Below are positions 3,910 to 54,207 of a stretch of 64,000 bases of DNA, piece by piece (the stretch's first letter is position 1; every line of letters begins with the position of its first letter). Location of the stretch: positions 768,001 through 832,000 of the forward strand of contig OZ245033.1 in the NCBI GenBank assembly GCA_965224025.1, read 5' to 3'. Both the position numbers and the translations under genes were made by a program. This DNA is from Candidatus Multivorans sp. Its GTDB lineage: Bacteria; Acidobacteriota; Thermoanaerobaculia; Multivoradales; Multivoraceae. The notes beneath the pieces are model-generated. The model had not been told where the DNA came from, did no database searches, and was given only the letters and a program-made list of their open reading frames with translations.

Positions 3910-4248
3910 ATGGCAGTGACAGGACAGGGCCACTGGACCCTGACGGTCCACGTCGAGTCGCATCGCGAAGATTCGACATGGGTAGCGACATGTCCGGCGC
4001 TTGATGTGGCGAGTCACGGACGGACGAAGAAGGAGTCCTACAAGATGCTTCGGGAAGCACTCGAAGGGTTCTTCGAAGACTGCTTGGCCCATGACACTCT
4101 CTGGACGGTGTTGGAGGAACGCGGCTTAGTACCGTCGCGCACTTCGGCGGTAGTCATGGAGCGCCCAGTTGCCAGCAAAGCGGAGTGGCTGAACATTCCC
4201 GTGTGGGTACTGCCGGATGCCCCCGCGCCCCAAACTTCCATCGGTTAG
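3910..4248 (+). CDS. HicB-family antitoxin
   Basis: WVATCPALDVASHGRTKKESYKMLREALEGF, the HicB N-terminal RNase H-like fold motif. GAGGAG lies upstream. Confidence 0.75.
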   Translation: MAVTGQGHWTLTVHVESHREDSTWVATCPALDVASHGRTKKESYKMLREALEGFFEDCLAHDTLWTVLEERGLVPSRTSAVVMERPVASKAEWLNIPVWVLPDAPAPQTSIG

Positions 4249-4448
4249 CCCCAAGAAGGCGCTCCGGGCCCTCAAGAAGGCGGGATGGAAGGAGTCTCAC
4301 AAGAAGGGCTCGCACCAATACCTGCGGAAGGCGGGGTTGCAGCGCCCGTCTGCATCCGGATGCACACGGGCGACCTGCCTAGGGGCACACTGCACTCCAT
4401 CCTGAAGGCAGCGAAGATGTCACGGCAGGAGTTTCTGGACCTGCTTAG
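4217..4448 (+). pseudogene. HicA-family toxin, frameshifted
   Basis: ALKKAGW..KGSHQYL in one frame, then VCIRMHTGDLPRGTLHSILKAAKMSRQEFLDLL in another. The shift is near 4345. Confidence 0.75.
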
Positions 4449-4475
4449 ACATCGGCGGGGTCCCCGCAGCGGCCA

Positions 4476-5980
<1,505 letters not shown>

Positions 5981-13766: not shown

Positions 13767-13794
13767 GCACTCGGTAAGCCCTGTTGTCAAGCAT
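13767..13794. other. Putative recombination site, switch 1 left (11-6-11)
   Basis: GCACTCGGTAA-GCCCTG-TTGTCAAGCAT. The core is the reverse complement of the core at 14960-14965. The inner arm is identical to 48503-48513. Confidence 0.7.
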
Positions 13795-13848: not shown

Positions 13849-14856
13849 TCACAGAAACGCCGCACCGGCGTGATCCCGGAACGCGTCCGCCTGCCGGATG
13901 TATCGGAGCACCATCTCCGCGTTCGTGTGCCTCGTGACCTCCATGATCTTGTCCAGCCGTGCCGAGTGGACGGCCGCGCTGGTCACGAAACCGGCTCGCA
14001 GGGAGTGGCCCGAGTAGTCGGCGGGATCCAGGCCGATTTCCCGCACGTAGCGCTTCACAAGTCGCGGGATGTCGGTCGGATGCAGGGCCCTGCCGCGCGG
14101 CCTTCCGCCGCGCCACATCGTCTGGAAAGCAGGTCCCTTGGTGATTCCGGACACGGCCAGCCAGCGCCGGAGCCGCTCGACCGGCCGGATGAACGCTCCC
14201 TCAGGGATCGCGACGCTCTGACCCTTTCCGAGCTGGTCCGTCTTCGAGCGACGGATGTGCAGGAGCATTCCCGCCGCTTCACCGGCGCCGTTCACGAACT
14301 CGACATCCTCCATCCGCAGTTGACAGATCTCCGATCGCCGTAGCGCTCCCGCGAAGCCCACCGCAATGATCGCCGCGTCACGTAAGGCGATCGTCCGGTT
14401 CTTTCTCTGAGCCGCCAGCTCGTCGCAGACCGAGAGGATCGCTGCGATCTCCTGCTCCCGGAGCGCCCTGACCTGCCTGGGCCGTGCATCCGTCAACCGC
14501 CCGAGCCCCCGCAGAACGCTCCTCACCGTCACGTTCCTCGCGGGCGATTCGAGGTTCCGGTCTCCGTAGTACCGATTGATCGCGGCCAGGCAGATCCTGA
14601 TCGTGCCCAACGCAAGCGGACGCTCGGCCCTTTTGCCGCCATTGGACGATCCCGGCGTCGCCGCCATCGCAACCAGGAACTCCGCAACGGTGGCAGGCGT
14701 CGCGCCCATCGGGTCGACTCGGCGCTGCTCGCAGAAAGCGGCAAACCGCCGCCAGCCGCTTCGATACGCCCTCCGTGTGTTCTCGGCGAGTGATGTCTCC
14801 AGAGCTTGCCCGACTGAGACTGCTGCAAGGGAATCGAGGTCCTTGTGAAGAGGCAT
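13849..14856 (-). CDS. Cre-like tyrosine recombinase (SAM-like N-domain plus catalytic domain), intact
   Basis: NTRRAY..W..F..FC, GALRRSE, SKTDQ, GHSLRAG, TRH and RYIR give the R-K-H-R-H-Y catalytic set. AAGGAG RBS. Confidence 0.92.
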   Translation of the reverse strand: MPLHKDLDSLAAVSVGQALETSLAENTRRAYRSGWRRFAAFCEQRRVDPMGATPATVAEFLVAMAATPGSSNGGKRAERPLALGTIRICLAAINRYYGDRNLESPARNVTVRSVLRGLGRLTDARPRQVRALREQEIAAILSVCDELAAQRKNRTIALRDAAIIAVGFAGALRRSEICQLRMEDVEFVNGAGEAAGMLLHIRRSKTDQLGKGQSVAIPEGAFIRPVERLRRWLAVSGITKGPAFQTMWRGGRPRGRALHPTDIPRLVKRYVREIGLDPADYSGHSLRAGFVTSAAVHSARLDKIMEVTRHTNAEMVLRYIRQADAFRDHAGAAFL

Positions 14857-14948: not shown

Positions 14949-14976
14949 ATCCTCCGTAACAGGGCTAGGGGAGGAT
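14949..14976. other. Putative recombination site, switch 1 right (11-6-11)
   Basis: ATCCTCCGTAA-CAGGGC-TAGGGGAGGAT. The arms are 8/11 complementary. Confidence 0.7.
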
Positions 14977-14982
14977 TATGGT
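14977..14982 (+). promoter_or_regulatory. -10 element (TATGGT) of a split promoter completed on inversion
   Basis: Would lie 18 bp from TTGACA after the segment inverts. Confidence 0.55.
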
Positions 14983-45006: not shown

Positions 45007-47415
<2,409 letters not shown>

Positions 47416-47449: not shown

Positions 47450-48409
47450 GCGGAGCCGGCCTTGCGGCCGGCGCGTCGCTCTGGCCGCCTGCGGCGGCAG
47501 CTCTCGAAGACCCGCGGGGCTTCCTCGAGATGAACGAGCCGCCCGTGATCTTCGACGAAGTGCAGCACGCTCCGAACCTGTTGCCCTACATCCGGGAGCG
47601 GATCGACGCGAATCGCGATGCGCGCGGCCAGTACCTCTTGACGGGATCCCAGAATCTCATGCTGGCCGAGAAGGTGACGGAGTCCCTTGCGGGCCGCGCG
47701 GCGGTTCTCCGGCTGTTTCCTCTCTCGAGGCGTGAGTCCGAAGGCCGCCCGGAACTTCTACTGCCTTGGGAGGGTGGCTCCGCGAGAAGGCCAGCGCCGC
47801 GGGACGCCTACGGTGACCTTTGGCGCGCGTTTTTTCCTGCGGGTGCTGGCGGCACGGAGCGCGCAGTTGCTGAACCTGACCGATGTTGCCAGGGACCTCG
47901 GAGTTGCCGTCAACACGGTCAAGGCATGGCTGTCGATGCTCGAGGCGACATATCAGGTGATCGTGCTCCGTCCGTACTTCGCGAATGTCGGCAAGCGGCT
48001 CGTCAAGACGCCAAAGGTCTACTTCACCGATGTCGGCACGCTGTGCCACCCGGTTGGGTTGAAAGATCCGGGGCACGCGGCCTCGGGGCCAATGAGCGGC
48101 CCGATCATGGAGACTGCGGTCCTCTGCGAGATCGTCAAGACCTTCACTCACCGGGGGGAGGCGCCGCGGGTCTACTTCTGGCGCACGAGGGCCGGGGCCG
48201 AGGTCGACTTCGTGATCGAGGCAGGCGAGAGTCTCGTGCCGGTCAAGGTGAAGGTCTCAGCCACTCCGCGACCGGCGATGGCCAGGACGATCAGGACGTT
48301 GCAGGGGGAGCTCGGAGCGACCGCTACTCGCGGGTACGTCGTGCATCCGGGCGACGTGTCCCTGCCGGTGGGCCAGGGAGCAAGGGCTTTGCCGTTCGGT
48401 GAGTTGTAG
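47450..48409 (+). pseudogene. AAA ATPase/DUF4143 protein remnant
   Basis: DEVQ..P.L and LTGSQ, then in another frame KRLVKTPKVYF.D.G and YFWR..G.EVDF. The N-terminus and middle are deleted. Confidence 0.85.
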
Positions 48410-48485: not shown

Positions 48486-48513
48486 ACGCTCGACAATCGC
48501 GGTTGTCAAGCAT
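48486..48513. other. Putative recombination site, switch 2 left (11-6-11)
   Basis: ACGCTCGACAA-TCGCGG-TTGTCAAGCAT. The arms are 9/11 complementary. Confidence 0.75.
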
Positions 48514-48569
48514 CCTTGACGTGCGCGCGGCACCACGCGAATCCTGGTGTGGCGACACCAGGCTGCGGC

Positions 48570-49586
48570 TCACAGGAAGGCGTCGCCGGCGTGATCCTCG
48601 AAGGCGTCCGCCAGCCGAATGTAGCGCAGCACCATGCCGGCGCTCGCGTGCCGAGTGACGTCCATGATCTTGTCCAGACGGGCGCCGTGGGCGGCGGCGC
48701 TGGTGACGAACCCGGCCCGCAGCGAGTGCCCCGAGTAGTCGGCCGGGTCGAGACCGATGGCCTGCACGCAGCGCTTCACGACACGTGCCACTTCGGTGGG
48801 ATGCAGCGCCTTCCCTCGCGGGCGTCCGCCCCGCCAGAGGCTCTGAAAGGCGGGGCCGTCCGTGTTTCCGGCTACGCTCAGCCAGCGCCGCATCCGCTCC
48901 ACCGGCCGAATGCTTGAACCCTCCGGGACCGCGATTCTCTGGCCCCTGCCTGGCTGGTCCGTCTTCGATCGCCGGATATGCAGGAACATGCCTCCCGGTT
49001 CATCGGTTCTACCCAGGAACTCGATGTCGGCCACCCGCAGGCCGCAAATCTCCGAACGCCTGAGCGCGCCCCGCGAAGCCGACCGCGACGACCGCCGCGT
49101 CCCGGATCGCCAGCGCTCGGCGTTCCCTCCGCGCGGCAAGCCGGTCACAGTAGGAGAGGATCGCTCTGATCTCACCTTCGCGAAGTGCCTTCACACGCCG
49201 CGGCGGCCCGCCGGCCAGTCGCCCGAGGCCCCGAAGAACGCTCCTCACCGTCTCGTGACGGGCCGGGGAGCCGAGGCTGCTCTCCCTGTACTTGCGGTTG
49301 ATCGCGGCCAGACAGATCTTGATCGTGCTGGGCGCCAGCGGCCCGCCTGTTTCATGTCCACACGCCGTGGGCCGGGCCCCGACGCCATCGCGACCAGGAA
49401 CTCCGCCACGTTCTCGGGCGTGACGGCCATCGGATCGAGCTGTCTCTCCTCGCAGTAGGCGGCGAACCGCCGCCAGCCGTTGCGGTACGCCATGCGCGTG
49501 TTCTCCGCCAGCGAGGTTCGCAGCGCGTCGGCGACGGAAACTTCAGTGGTCGGATCGTCGCGTTCAGGTTCGCCGTGGAAGGGCAT
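48570..49586 (-). pseudogene. Cre-like tyrosine recombinase paralog with two compensating frameshifts
   Basis: Collinear with 13849-14856 (SLAENTR.AY, ALRRSE, SKTDQ, GHSLRAG, LRYIR). Shifts near 49345 and 49070, with a stop at 49245. Confidence 0.88.
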
Positions 49587-49674
49587 CGAGAACGTCTCCT
49601 TGTGCGGGGCATCGGTTCATCGTGCTTCCTCTGCTGTCAAGTCACGCGAGAGCGGTTCACCGGGCGGCCGGAGC

Positions 49675-49702
49675 ACGCTCTGTAACCGCGATTGCCGGCG
49701 TT
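49675..49702. other. Putative recombination site, switch 2 right (11-6-11)
   Basis: ACGCTCTGTAA-CCGCGA-TTGCCGGCGTT. The core is the reverse complement of TCGCGG at 48497-48502. Confidence 0.7.
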
Positions 49703-49707
49703 AGTGT
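49702..49707 (+). promoter_or_regulatory. -10 element (TAGTGT) of a split promoter completed on inversion
   Basis: Would lie 17 bp from TTGACA after inversion. Confidence 0.55.
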
Positions 49708-49959
49708 GGTCGGCACAGCAGAGAAGCCAGTCCGGGAGGTTAGAACGTGGGGCGAGGCGATGCACGGGAGCGGCGGAGGGAGTCGTCGTGGTACGCGGTC
49801 TTCCTGTTGCTCGTCGTCTTCGCTAGGGCATTGCGGCGGGCGCGCCGACAGTCGTCCTCCTCAGTGAGGTTCTTGCCCTCTTGGCCCTCGAAGGGGGCGA
49901 CTTGACACAAGCTGCCGGCGTCGGCTCTGGCGCAGGCGATCACCAATGAGAGGATGCTC

Positions 49960-50271
49960 ATGTCCAGAAGACCACTATCGACGACGAAGCTGCTAACGCT
50001 GGTGGCATTGGCCGCCCTGTCGCTTCTCACTTGCTCGGGGATCGACTACAATATCAGCTATGCGCACGGCTACGGAAACACCGAAGCTGCGGCGTGTGAG
50101 CGTGCCCACGAGAACGCCGATGTCTTCGCGGGAAGGTGTCAGTTGGAACCCTGCCGGTACAGGTCCGAGGATGTCATTCCGGACGATATGGACGACTGGG
50201 AAGACTGCAACAAACGTCTGCCCTGTTACCGAGCGACAATCGTCATTGACTGTCCCGATTCGAGTTACTGA
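49960..50271 (+). CDS. Small Cys-rich secreted protein or lipoprotein
   Basis: Signal KLLTLVALAALSLLTC followed by six further Cys; GAGG RBS. Confidence 0.65.
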   Translation: MSRRPLSTTKLLTLVALAALSLLTCSGIDYNISYAHGYGNTEAAACERAHENADVFAGRCQLEPCRYRSEDVIPDDMDDWEDCNKRLPCYRATIVIDCPDSSY

Positions 50272-50331
50272 GTTCGGTGCACAATGCAGGACCTTGCCCG
50301 GAAGCACACATCGGCGCGCAGGAGAAACAGG

Positions 50332-51671
50332 GGCGCTTCAGGGTTGTGTGTGGGCATGAAGTGACTCCGGCGCGAGGTCGAGTCCGCCGAGATGGAAGTA
50401 GATGGCGAGCCGGAAGTGTGCTCGGTTTCGATAGCCGTGCGCTTTTCGCTTGATCTCCTGTATCTTCGCGTTGATGCCTTCGGCGCGGGCGTTGGAGACG
50501 GTGGACACGGCGGCGTTGATGACGGCATCCCAGTGGTTCTTGATCATCTTCGCCACCTGCTTGATCGGTTCCAGGCGACTGCGGACGGCCCAGTTGTACC
50601 AGCGCTTCCACCGTCGCTCGGCCCAGCCGCGGCGCACGTAGCCCCACGAGGAGCGCGCCATCTCCTTGATCGCCCAAGCGCGAGCCACGCGAAGGTGACT
50701 CGCGCGAAGAGCAGCGAAACGCCGCTGCTGCAGGCGCGTCATTCGTCCACTCTTCATCAACCACAGGTAGCGGCTCCGCTTCAGACGCGAATCCCCCGCT
50801 TCGAGCAGCTCCCGCTGCTCAGCACGGCGAACCAGGTCCACGGCGTGGTTCAGGTGCGCGACGATGTGGAACCTGTCGTGCACGATGTCCGCATCCGTGT
50901 ACTCCTCCACCGAGGAGATGTAGGCCGGCCACATGTCCATCGCCACCTGCTCGATACCCGCGCAGCTCTTCTCACCCAACTCCTGGAAGTAACCGTCGAT
51001 GGCCGACCGGCCGCGACCGTCGGCCACATGGGTCACCACCCCGCGTCCCAGATCGTTGACTACCGTCACGTACTCGTGGCGCTTCCGAAACGACGTCTCG
51101 TCCACGCCGATCAACCGAGGCGGCTTCATCTCTCGCCGTGCCAGACCCCGTTCCACGGCCCGCCGCTGAATCCCCGCCGCCTGATCCCAACTCAGACCCA
51201 GACGGCAAGCCGCCGCATGCACGCTTGCCTCACGCAGCCACTCGACAGCCTCCGCTTCGAACAGCGCCGTGAACCGCGAACCCGAGTCCGCCCAAGGCAC
51301 CTTCAACTGGCGAATGCCGTGCTCGACGCAACGCACCCGAGGCACCTCCGCGTGAACCCGAGTCTGGTGCTGCATCGTGTCCAGGTGACGCCAACGGCGA
51401 TGCCTCTTGTCGTAGCCCGGACACGGCAAACCGCACTCCGGACAGCGAGTCTCTCCACAATGCTCGACGTGGATCTCCACCGTGCCGCCAACCACCGGAC
51501 CCCGGCGACGCGGATGCCGCTCGTCCATGCGAAGCACCACCTCCCGCACACCCCACGGCGGCTTGATCCCCAACAGCCTCTCGAACGTCTTGGCACTCTT
51601 CATCCCGCCAGTCTAAGGCCGATCGGCAGCCTCTCTAGCAGCTCCGTCCCCACACAACAGCCTGAAGACCC
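50332..51671 (-). mobile_element. ISL3-family element with 8-bp TSD GAAACAGG
   Basis: Inverted repeats GGCGCTTCAGGGTTGTGTGTGGG and CCCACACAACAGCCTGAAGACCC. TSD at 50324-50331 and 51672-51679. Confidence 0.95.
50338..51603 (-). CDS. ISL3 transposase
   Basis: CPECG zinc finger, IGVDE, AMDMW, DRFH and SNARAEGIN. Confidence 0.95.
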
Positions 51672-51838
51672 GAAACAGGAAGAAGGGTCGGCTCCTGTTG
51701 CCTTCGAGAGAGGGGAGTTGCTCCGGTCGGTCCGACCCCGGCGGGCACGCCCTTAGGTCCTAACTGACTTAACAAGATCCGCAAGCGTAGCTCCTCGCGT
51801 TGCAGTCCACTGACACGACTACAAAGGAGAGGCAAAGA

Positions 51839-52954
51839 ATGAGTGAGAATCCCCAGGGGAGTCGCGGGGCGGCCCGCCTCCGACTTCTCCCGTCCCTGAA
51901 CACGCCGCTTACGGCAGCGGCCTTGATTCTCGGCTGCGTTCCAATCTTATTCTCCTATGCAGAGAGTCACCGCCAGCAGCCGGATGTCAAGCTGCATGTG
52001 GAGCACTACGCGGTTCGGGCTGACCCGGTGAAGCGCGTAACTGCGGACACGTTGGCGCTGGATCTGGAGGGGCTCGAATCCACGTACCGCCACGTCTCAG
52101 GAACTTACCTAATAGACGCGATGGACCGTGTGCTGGAGGTAACCCAGGCGGTGCAATCGAGCGGAGAAGGCGCCTCGCAAGAAGGGGACGCCGTGCAGAC
52201 AAAGGCTGACTTGGTTGCGATTCTCTCGGATACGCAGGATCAACTCGCCGAAGAGCTGAGGAGGAGAGAGGAGCGCAGGGGTGACTTGATAGGTGGACTG
52301 AAAAGGCTCTTGGAGAGCGGGGACGAAGTGTGGTCCGACGAGTCTTGGCACAGTAACATACGCGAGGAACTCGAGAACCTTGAGAGGCTTCACGCGGACC
52401 AGACGGGTCTTGGCATCGTGGCGCTCCTGTGGGAGGTGGATTCGTCGCCTCCCGAGGAAATGAAGGAGCGGATTGGAGGTCTTGTGGTTGCACTGGAGGA
52501 GGAGCGAGGGCTGGATGAGGGGGATCTGGCGGATCTACTCGAAGAACTGGATGGGCTACGTCAGCAGCACGCCGAGAGCGAACCGACACAGCGTCTTCAT
52601 GTGGAGTTGCTTCTTGAGAACCACAGTCAACTCGGTACAGTTGTGCCACGGAAGGCACGCATTCGGTTCACGGCCGCCGACGGCTCTACAGAGGACGTGG
52701 AGCTTACGGCTGACGGGGACGTCCGAATGGAGGGCCACTCGGTGGCGAACATGCAAGTAGAGTCAAAGGGCTTGGGTGATCTTGACAGCGAGGTGGCCGG
52801 ACTACTTCGCGGCCTAGAGGGCCGGCCCGTTAGGTGCGATGTTGTAGTTCTCGACCTCTCCGGGAGGTCTTGGTTTGGCGAGTGCGGAAAGGTGTCGCGA
52901 GCGGTGAGCTTGGACGAGAGACTCAAACAGGCTCTGAGTCAGGCCAAGTTCTGA
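51839..52954 (+). CDS. Hypothetical membrane-anchored coiled-coil protein (lower-GC cargo)
   Basis: AAGGAG RBS, N-terminal TM, acidic helical middle and beta-rich C-terminus. Confidence 0.7.
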   Translation: MSENPQGSRGAARLRLLPSLNTPLTAAALILGCVPILFSYAESHRQQPDVKLHVEHYAVRADPVKRVTADTLALDLEGLESTYRHVSGTYLIDAMDRVLEVTQAVQSSGEGASQEGDAVQTKADLVAILSDTQDQLAEELRRREERRGDLIGGLKRLLESGDEVWSDESWHSNIREELENLERLHADQTGLGIVALLWEVDSSPPEEMKERIGGLVVALEEERGLDEGDLADLLEELDGLRQQHAESEPTQRLHVELLLENHSQLGTVVPRKARIRFTAADGSTEDVELTADGDVRMEGHSVANMQVESKGLGDLDSEVAGLLRGLEGRPVRCDVVVLDLSGRSWFGECGKVSRAVSLDERLKQALSQAKF

Positions 52955-53706
52955 GTGAGGCGCGTCGATAGTTCCGACGTCATCCTCCCCCACACACACC
53001 GGTGAGCGGCCGCTTTCAAGGCGGCAAAAACGGTAGTAGAGGACGACGGGAAGGGCGGCAAACACCGCTTTCGTTAGCGGAATCGACATCGGCCGCCCCG
53101 CCTCCTGCCGCTCAACAGACCAACCCCTGGAACAAGAACGTATCGCCCGGCGGCGACATCGAGAGGCTCGTCTACAAGAAGGTCGACATCGTGCCGCCGA
53201 TCCTGCCGCTCCCTATGGAACCACTCCTCGCCGAACCCGTGAAGCAGGTGCCCCGGCCGACCCCCTCGAAGGGCCCAAACTGAGGTAGTGCCGATCTTCG
53301 CGTGGAGGTCGAGGAATTCCTCCTCGCGGTCGGGACGCCCTCGTGCTGGCAACGCTGAGAACTGGGGCTAGCGTCGCTTGGAGGCATTGCTTGCAAGACG
53401 AGCCACCTCGGCCGTGCTTCAAGTGTACGGGAGTGTTCCTCCTCGTTCTCTTTCGGCGGTCAGTAGTCGCGTCGTTTGCTATGGCGGTGGGGCGTGTGGC
53501 AGCGGGCCATCGGGGGACGGAGGCCGCGTCGGGGCGCGGGAAGAGAACCTGCGTGATCTACTTAGTTGGGGGGCCGAGAAGCTTTGCCGCGCGTGCGGGT
53601 GGCGGCCGCCATGACCGAGCGAAGCATGCATGCGCTGGGAAAGAAAGCTACTGACCTGATTCTCAGGCGGCACGGAGACCCGAAGACATAGACAAGGGGA
53701 GGCAGC

Positions 53707-54207
53707 ATGAGGTTCATCAAGCTCGTCGGATCCACGCTTGGGGTGTTGTTGATTGCATCTCTCGGCCTGATCGTGTGGGTGAACGCGAGTTCGGATGAGC
53801 AGAAAGAGCAGGCGATAGAAGCAGCGGCCGAGGCGATGGTTGCGCCGTTGGAGGTCGCCGTCGCACTCATGGCGGAACCGCCGGCCGAGGAGCTTCCTCC
53901 AGACGACGTCATGCTGGCGGAGATCGAGACCTTGCTGGCGGATGTGGAAGCGCTCTACGCCGAGCTGATCGGCATACGCGAAGCGATCGAGGCTGCGCAT
54001 ACGGACGAATGGGAGAAGCGTTGGGCCAGGGACGCGGTGACCTTGGCGAGGATGGACAAGAAGCGGGCCGTCGAGGCAGTGAACCAGCGGGCTGAGAGCG
54101 CAAGGTCTGGCTTCGGCACGTGGCGCCGCGGAGCTCCAAAAGGCAATGGTGGAGCAGGAGGTCGCCAAAGCCAGGGAGAAGCTGCCGAGCGTCAGACGTG
54201 CACATGA
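53707..54207 (+). CDS. Hypothetical membrane-anchored protein
   Basis: GGGGAGG RBS and N-terminal TM. Confidence 0.6.
   Translation: MRFIKLVGSTLGVLLIASLGLIVWVNASSDEQKEQAIEAAAEAMVAPLEVAVALMAEPPAEELPPDDVMLAEIETLLADVEALYAELIGIREAIEAAHTDEWEKRWARDAVTLARMDKKRAVEAVNQRAESARSGFGTWRRGAPKGNGGAGGRQSQGEAAERQTCT

Follow-up and report, generated by a model that had tools for sequence, protein, structure and literature searches.

Within a 64,000-nucleotide stretch of the genome of Candidatus Multivorans sp. (Acidobacteriota; assembly GCA_965224025.1, contig OZ245033.1, positions 768,001–832,000; hereafter, the window), we describe an element of approximately 1.2 kb, switch 2, which probably belongs to a family of invertible promoter switches that are self-contained. 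Such a segment carries its own Cre-like tyrosine recombinase gene and is bounded by two lox-like sites, each composed of 11-bp arms around an asymmetric 6-bp core, with the two cores inverted relative to each other. The recombinase would exchange strands within the cores and flip the segment. At the end of the gene with the stop codon, the arm CTTGACAA would double as a −35 hexamer, and a −10-like hexamer, TAnnGT, lies just past the arm of one of the fixed flanks. In the OFF state, the two halves would be ~1.2 kb apart, as they are in switch 2 and in a second copy in the window, switch 1; in the ON state, TTGACA-N17/18-TAnnGT would face the neighboring genes. Each locus has its own core, and since the cores must match for strands to be exchanged, recombination among the switches of one genome is not expected.

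Inversion between genomes and the sites of switch 2

The segment inverts, as seen between genomes: four pairs of orthologous loci lie in opposite orientations between the same flanks. One of these loci is switch 2, which is arranged in the related genome G031 as it is in the window (source genome, G000) and is inverted in G014, where the left junction reads GATGCTCGACAA-TCGCGG-TTACGGAGCGT and the right junction reads GATGCTTGACAA-CCGCGA-TTGCCGGCTC-TAGTGT. A central block of ~1.2 kb is collinear in three further locus pairs, L002/L003, L038/L048, and L001/L006; the flanks around it are reversed on both sides in L002/L003 and L038/L048 and on the one side that aligns in L001/L006. Compared with the site coordinates, the block of L002/L003 ends at the cores. 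In all four pairs, the core stays with its flank and the inner segment alone turns, which is the signature of a crossover inside the cores. An initial annotation of the window had proposed that inversion of switch 2 would produce TTGACA-N17-TAGTGT; this junction was computed for the window and is seen directly in the flipped G014 ortholog.

The inverted sites and core letters that the same annotation had assigned to switch 2 were borne out at both ends of the segment (Table 1), and the right site abuts the −10-like TAGTGT without a gap. Its description of an inner arm common to both loci and of similarity that fades outside the sites also held: TTGTCAAGCAT occurs exactly at 13784 and 48503 (four matches with at most one mismatch in the window, against 0.26 expected), and the blastn similarity between switches 1 and 2 is confined to the recombinase gene, at 73.5% identity. 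By our own count, the arms of the two switches are identical only at the TTGACAA arm, the other arms agreeing at 5–8 of 11 positions. A scan of the window for extra sites with the core of either switch found none with proper arms, so no additional sites delimit the variable block of genes downstream.

Covariation of the cores across the family

Scanning one genome per species identified 75 related loci, and 79 loci were examined in total. The closest of the 75, with 57–94% identity, are from metagenome-assembled genomes (MAGs) labeled as Ca. Multivorans, Thermoanaerobaculia, Holophagales, or Acidobacteria. A locus was defined as resolved when an exact TTGACAA was located ≤330 nt past the stop codon together with an N6 core, and the perfect reverse complement of this core was located upstream between A and TT. 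By this definition, 26 of the 79 loci were resolved, with 21 different cores. Inverted A-N6-TT repeats of 9–10 bp are present at both ends of these segments, as expected of invertons. As in the target sites of Cre-type enzymes, two inverted half-sites surround a spacer in the 11-6-11 sites, which adjoin the gene, 41–184 nt past the stop codon and 50–193 nt before the start codon; their arms are only partly symmetric. When read toward the core, the four arms are alike, ending in CTTGACAA, CTCGACAA or CTCGGTAA, CTCCGTAA, and CTCCCCTA; the −35 arm is one substitution away from an ordinary arm, and the core base beside the inner arms is C in 25 of the 26 loci.

In a core-blind test, site one was located by CTTGACAA and site two by the −10 motif in reverse complement together with an arm whose last letter is A, six arbitrary nt, and TT. 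Both sites were found in 23 loci, and in 22 of these the cores were perfect complements; cross-locus core pairings matched in 9 of 506 cases, all between orthologous loci sharing a core. Single-base changes are mirrored between the two ends: the cores of switch 1, CAGGGC/GCCCTG, correspond to CGGGGC/GCCCCG in L001 (92.6% identity over the segment and one flank), and the cores of L006, CAGGGA/TCCCTG, show a further mirrored change. In the source genome, the 62%-identical paralog p4 has the sites GATAA-GTCGGT-TTGTCAAGCCC and CGTTAA-ACCGAC-TTGTAGAGCAG, which are a third independent complementary pair in that genome. The core-blind pairs, the p4 cores, the mirrored changes in orthologs, and the inverted G014 locus thus back the argument of the initial annotation that the covariation of the cores supports an inversion mechanism; among the other paralogs, complementarity extends to p4 and is imperfect in p3.

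In each of the eight genomes with at least two resolved switches, the core differs between the switches. In the portions of PMC11260471 and PMC10250229 that concern Cre-type enzymes, the spacers' relative orientation is described as setting inversion versus excision, and matching spacers between partner sites are held to be necessary. It is plausible from the cores that their locus specificity keeps the switches of one genome orthogonal. This had also been put forward at the outset, and the cores differ as it would require in all eight multi-switch genomes; the exception is p3 in the source genome, which has the GCCCTG of switch 1 at one of its sites.

Among more distant relatives, L039, L042, and L058 (~52% identity; MAGs labeled as Gammaproteobacteria or Ca. 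Foliamicus) have GGTAA-AGTGCC-TTAC at one end and GGCACT at the other. The TTGACA arm is absent from these analogous sites, and no analogous site arrangement was found in the distant relatives beyond these three. Long inverted repeats, of 40 and 149 bp, surround the recombinase gene in L039 and L042. A second, tandem recombinase paralog occurs in L005 (5155–6111), L011, L015, L016, L018, L021, and L023, and in L005 it lies directly outside the stop-side site of a resolved switch. Flanking inverted sites were not found for the related copies L019, L023, and L029. The tandem paralog may act as a partner enzyme or may govern directionality.

A putative promoter divided by the crossover site

In all 26 resolved loci, TAnnGT (TAACGT, TAGCGT, TATGGT, and similar) is present in exactly one fixed flank, with a spacer of 17–18 from the joined TTGACA, and is absent from the other fixed flank. 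The two halves are apart in 23 loci, including the states of switches 1 and 2 in the window, and assembled in three (L003, L006, and L048), as they also are in G014 and p3. A consensus promoter scanner called TTGACA-18-TATCGT in L003, with 0 expected in shuffled sequences, and made no call on the window in its present state. Throughout the source genome, TTGACA-N16–19-TAnnnT was found 53 times, against four times in the reversed-sequence control and three times at out-of-register spacing; 22 of the 53 matches have a spacer of 17 and another 22 a spacer of 18, and TAGTGT occurs in four. Judged by these counts, TTGACA-N16–19-TAnnnT is the predicted normal promoter form of this organism. An ordinary gene at C1:3240874 has CTTGACAA-N18-TACCGT ahead of its ribosome-binding site and ATG.

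A pattern scan of the source genome for solo sites gave four matches, against none in the reversed control, and two of these were switch 1 and p3. The other two were rejected as solo sites: C1:3240874 looks like an ordinary promoter and has no partner core within 4 kb, and C1:4572809 is a weak match.

In terms of the genes that would be driven, 18 of the 26 loci have Pfam-supported genes beyond the −10 flank that read outward. These genes are diverse, encoding JmjC proteins, thioredoxin-like and peptidase C39 proteins (five loci), PQQ propellers, and a large fn3 protein; the outward gene of switch 1 encodes a He_PIG protein. Many of the 26 loci have open reading frames (ORFs) without a family beyond the −10 flank. 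This geometry suggests that the arm doubles as a −35 box and that a promoter, predicted to be active once assembled, is split across the crossover site.

The recombinase genes

The recombinase gene of switch 1, rec1, is intact, and its product matched Pfam PF00589 (Phage_integrase) with 59.2 bits (cut-off 27.1, E = 5.7e-16). Its best match in the PDB was Cre (E = 2.9e-11, residues 33–325), with similarity over almost all of its length and with the Arg, Lys, His-x-x-Arg, and Tyr motifs aligned, as in a Cre-type enzyme; the phmmer alignment paired LRRSE, RRSKT, GHSLR, and LRYI of recombinase 1 with LRIAE, GRTKT, GHSAR, and MNYI of Cre. The key residues of Cre named in the relevant part of PMC10250229 are R173, K201, H289, R292, W315, and Y324, and the W315 position is His in recombinase 1 (RHTN versus GWTN, with the numbering read off the alignment). 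By tblastn, the cre genes of P1 and P7 showed ~25% identity; plasmid "site-specific integrases" showed 37–40%. Recombinase 1 scored below the NCBIfam equivalog cut-offs for XerC, XerD, XerA, and the integron integrase (38.6–53 bits versus 220–335), and neither Pfam nor NCBIfam provided a specific family beyond the general Phage_integrase. These similarities characterize it as a tyrosine recombinase with Cre-type features that is outside the curated subfamilies.

The corresponding gene of switch 2, rec2, was split by tblastn into three pieces in two frames. Compared with the intact 338-aa orthologs in G031 and G014, 1 nt is deleted near 49343 and 1 nt inserted near 49072, which shifts ~91 codons out of frame; these places are close to the indels noted initially near 49345 and 49070. 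In the sequencing data, the contigs of runs X1 and X2 (two runs of one sample, which may be that of the source) have the same letters as the window at both indels, and in one low-depth contig of run X3, the letter at 49069 is missing. Therefore, the rec2 indels are probably real and not fixed in all related populations.

The source genome has four recombinase copies and one fragment, and three intact paralogs show 62–100% identity to rec1. The p3 paralog (L076, G000:C1:2286603–2287607 plus flanks) has an intact recombinase gene and is in an ON-like orientation, with TTGACA-N18-TACTGT; the ORFs downstream from it, of 442, 918, and 605 aa, are without a Pfam family. The isolated 71-aa fragment (L078, G000:C1:4017138–4017350) is 69% identical to residues 114–184 of recombinase 1 and is probably a relic of a lost switch.

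Table 1. Coordinates of the two switches and of the features adjoining switch 2 in the window
Feature	Position	Strand	Description
Switch 2, left site	48486–48513		Outer arm ACGCTCGACAA, core TCGCGG (48497–48502), inner arm TTGTCAAGCAT; same in G031 and G014
Switch 2, right site	49675–49702		Inner arm ACGCTCTGTAA, core CCGCGA (49686–49691), fixed outer arm TTGCCGGCGTT
Putative −35 half of the switch 2 promoter	48504–48509	−	TTGACA; minus-strand reading of the left inner arm
Fixed −10-like hexamer	49702–49707	+	TAGTGT; 17 nt from the landing place of the inverted TTGACA; assembled in G014
Switch 1, left site	13767–13794		GCACTCGGTAA, core GCCCTG (13778–13783), arm TTGTCAAGCAT
Switch 1, right site	14949–14982		ATCCTCCGTAA, core CAGGGC (14960–14965), TAGGGGAGGAT; includes −10-like TATGGT (14977–14982)
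rec1	13849–14856	−	Intact Cre-like tyrosine recombinase gene, 335 aa; Phage_integrase domain
rec2	48573–49586	−	Cre-like tyrosine recombinase pseudogene; paralog of rec1; tblastn and ortholog alignment
52-aa ORF	49747–49905	+	Hydrophobic, membrane-spanning-like stretch; first ORF past the −10; no Pfam match
105-aa ORF	49954–50271	+	Lipoprotein-like signal LLTCSG (by eye); no Pfam match
ISL3-family insertion sequence	50332 to ~51672	−	Transposase gene 50338–51603, 421 aa, minus strand

State of switch 2 in the source genome and its neighboring genes

Switch 2 in the source genome is in the OFF orientation and decaying: rec2 has two frameshifts, and an ISL3 element is present in the unit that the switch would drive. 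In the initial annotation, the inverted promoter would face 49960–54207; this region is not a single gene and contains several ORFs and an ISL3-family insertion sequence (IS). The start region of the 52-aa ORF aligns in G016 and G031, and G014 was compared by eye. The transposase matched DDE_Tnp_ISL3 (PF01610, E = 1.1e-73), as well as PF13542 and PF14690, and thus has the HTH and zinc ribbon of this family. Elsewhere in the genome, the element has three full-length copies that are 100% identical and another in two pieces (100% and 99.8%), and the contig depth jumps at 50336–50400. A 70-nt end of the element is 100% identical in G016 and G026. A 454-aa ORF on the plus strand at 50392–51756 was rejected because it is antisense to the transposase gene. 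Further ORFs without a family follow beyond the element, and searches of Pfam and NCBIfam returned nothing for most of the neighboring ORFs of switch 2, p3, and p4.

Each genome compared has different genes between the switch and a conserved gene of 166 aa (53707–54207), and the homology between switch 1 and L001 breaks right after the −10. The block beside the switch is a hotspot of gene turnover. When the block at 49822–53522 was compared with L105, L106, and L107, its length was ~0.26 kb in G016 and 3.7–5 kb elsewhere. Upstream from switch 2 are an ORF with an AAA_14 domain (47530–48402) and a catalase-peroxidase-type gene (Pfam peroxidase; 45058–47415). In G016, G031, and G014, the AAA_14 ORF is conserved beside the switch or, where there is no segment, beside the empty site. 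G025 and G035, which lack both the switch and the driven unit, have this ORF as well.

Contrary observations and alternative explanations

Several observations weigh against the interpretation of switch 2 as one of a family of invertible promoter switches. The assembled contigs of three runs from two studies show only the reference orientation, without strand-changing joints; minor variants are invisible in contigs, which drop rare variants. Three low-depth "skip" joints were located inside the recombinase gene or in its upstream flank, which are regions with look-alikes. A direct reading of the cores TCGCGG and CCGCGA gives the same letter at 4 of 6 positions, so that inverted and direct arrangements are told apart by 2 of 6 bases; switch 2 alone is weak evidence, because the CGCG center is self-complementary and only the outer two bases discriminate. 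Across the family, 53 of the 79 loci are without such a site pair, most of them ~50%-identity relatives from other phyla or second tandem copies. L020 provides the only failing pair in the core-blind test, with CGACGC and AGGGTG at the two ends of its gene (4001–4939), and may be a two-switch hybrid or a locked relic. The cores of p3 (82% identical) are imperfect, CAGGCT versus CAGGGC, the matching core being that of switch 1, and given these non-matching cores p3 may be locked. On the promoter side, the consensus scanner found 0 matches at the assembled junctions of G014 and p3, the hexamers TAGTGT, TACTGT, and TAACGT agree with TATAAT at only three of six positions, and the Pfam-supported gene that comes first past the −10 flank of L012 reads inward. 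With a broken rec2 and an IS in its driven unit, switch 2 may be inert in the source genome. Finally, simple inversion leaves a precise empty site in G016 unexplained.

This empty site (L082, G016:C1, about 2151–2190) consists of a single site formed from both outer arms, ACGCTCGTCAA-TCGCGG-TTGCCGGTTC-TAGTGT, with no segment; through its outer arm it contains TCGTCA-N17-TAGTGT, perhaps a constitutive promoter of low strength. In searches for empty or flipped forms of the orthologs of switch 1 and p4, no further empty sites were recovered, because homology in most relatives ends at the neighboring gene. Inverted sites cannot excise, and the near-palindromic core of switch 2 or a TTG microhomology might have allowed excision in G016. 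One explanation that takes up this site is that the unit is mainly a mobile tyrosine-recombinase "insertion sequence", with the differences in orientation and presence reflecting independent insertions and excisions and with cores derived from the target. Consistent with mobility, the unit is multicopy (four copies and a fragment here, and two to six matches at E ≤ 1e-20 in relatives, some of them fragments or weak), adjoins unrelated gene sets at different loci, has ~50%-identity relatives in MAGs labeled as several other phyla, loses homology between switch 1 and L001 right after the −10, and is missing exactly from G016 where G000, G031, and G014 hold the segment. However, circle integration or staggered-cut transposition gives direct, not inverted, duplications, and the cores stay with the flanks in all four ortholog pairs as the inner segment alone turns. 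Furthermore, the flank gene of G016 is 92–94% identical to that of the window, and those of G031 and G014, which both hold the segment, are ~85% identical; loss in G016 is more parsimonious than three gains because its flank is closer to the source genome than the flanks of these two segment-holding genomes. We therefore consider that the unit is unlikely to be mainly mobile, and mobility and switching are compatible with each other. A scheme combining the two is doubtful but worth stating, in which the switch would be a phase-variation cassette that is portable and installs itself: the Cre-like recombinase gene would enter a promoter site of lox-like layout (outer arm-core-outer arm-(−10), which G016 retains), the cores would drift in concert, and near-palindromic cores would permit occasional excision. 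If this were true, a constitutive promoter would be converted into an ON/OFF switch, strand exchange would copy changes between the sites and thus produce concerted core drift at both ends, and the family would be a natural library of >20 mutually orthogonal lox-like spacers. Excision at cores such as TCGCGG would then explain the empty site and the spread among genomes and phyla.

Alternatively, the inversion may be real, with the TTGACA arm and TAnnGT serving as binding sequences for the recombinase or an accessory factor and the inversion having a purpose other than promoter assembly, such as regulating the expression of the recombinase itself or maintaining the element selfishly. The other arms CTCGACAA and CTCGGTAA are 1–2 substitutions from CTTGACAA, and the −35 match is possibly a by-product of arm specificity; the departure of the −10 hexamers from TATAAT, the two of three scanned assembled junctions that the scanner missed, and the inward gene of L012 point the same way. 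We give this explanation little probability, considering that TAnnGT occupies exactly one fixed flank in 26 of 26 loci, always at a spacer of 17–18, that the composite form is strongly enriched genome-wide with a peak at these same spacers, that the ordinary gene at C1:3240874 uses the arm sequence ahead of its ribosome-binding site and ATG, and that genes read outward beyond the −10 flank in most loci. The invertible promoter switch is our preferred reading of the family, and within it the present activity of switch 2 is a separate matter. We regard the chances as evenly balanced that this copy is an inert relic locked in the OFF state in the source genome and not flipped in trans by recombinase 1 or another paralog. 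The two rec2 frameshifts are absent from the orthologs, a recent ISL3 copy interrupts the driven unit, the contigs of the three runs have only the reference orientation, and the arms of switches 1 and 2 are identical only at TTGACAA. On the other hand, both sites of switch 2 are intact and their cores are still perfect complements, the lesions in rec2 are only two of 1 nt each, so its decay is recent, the genome has three intact paralogs, and minor inverted subpopulations would be invisible in contigs.

Comparison with known systems

Cre/loxP of phage P1 is the best match among solved structures and likewise has a simple site with two inverted arms and an asymmetric spacer, to which the spacer rules cited above apply. 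In contrast to loxP, with its arms of 13 bp and spacer of 8 bp, the sites of this family have arms of ~11 bp and a variable 6-bp core, the recombinase gene itself lies between the two inverted sites, and one of the arms is a putative −35 box. Cre naturally functions in plasmid resolution and circularization, whereas the family is present on the chromosome in several copies per genome that differ in their cores, and its natural role appears to be switching. Other Cre-type tyrosine recombinase systems include Dre/rox, Vika/vox, and Nigri/nox. The engineered lox511 and lox2272 sites and FLEx/DIO cassettes rely on spacer variants for orthogonality and on inverted sites for a flip switch; these are laboratory constructs, in contrast to the at least 21 natural cores of the family, which apparently arose from concerted change at both sites.

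In the fimS element of Escherichia coli, the tyrosine recombinases FimB and FimE invert a promoter and turn neighboring genes on or off, and the family is similar in that a tyrosine recombinase would invert promoter information to switch its neighbors. Unlike fimS, in which the whole promoter is inside a 314-bp element with 9-bp repeats, the recombinase genes are outside, and host factors are needed, the family has its recombinase gene inside the segment, its putative promoter split at the crossover, and an identical repeat composed of the core plus the flanking A and TT (9–10 bp). The Hin/hix H-segment of Salmonella and the related Gin, Cin, and Pin systems use serine recombinases, which depend on Fis and on an enhancer, and their promoter is complete inside the segment. 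The family resembles Hin/hix in that the recombinase gene rides on the invertible segment with promoter information, and differs in that its enzyme is not a serine recombinase and its promoter is not complete inside the segment. Many invertons of the Bacteroides type are served by shared recombinases encoded outside the element, unlike the ~1.2-kb switches here, each of which carries its own enzyme and its own core. In the sections of PMC11602134 on the PhaseFinder and DeepInverton surveys, such invertons are mostly <300 bp with longer repeats, and, like the family, there are many invertible promoters per genome, often beside surface or secreted functions. The terms "Acidobacteri" and "sponge" are absent from the main text of that paper. 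In the full-text literature (main texts, with few subscription journals), no recombinase-carrying switch with a promoter split at the crossover and locus-specific covarying cores was found, nor was any inverton report from these lineages. Thus, promoter inversion by site-specific recombinases is well known, and the combination of an own recombinase, a split promoter, and private 6-bp cores was not found described.

Implications for the family and its hosts

Repeat-based inverton surveys may well miss this family, whose repeat is 9–10 bp and whose segment is ~1.2 kb, compared with training on elements of mostly <300 bp as given in the relevant part of PMC11602134. For genome-engineering tests, the family supplies a set of natural Cre-like enzymes together with many cores that are candidates for orthogonality, and its principle is that of the heterospecific lox sites designed by engineers. 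For the organism itself, the arrangement suggests a way for an uncultured lineage of Acidobacteriota to operate several independent ON/OFF switches by means of near-identical enzymes and keep its chromosome unscrambled.

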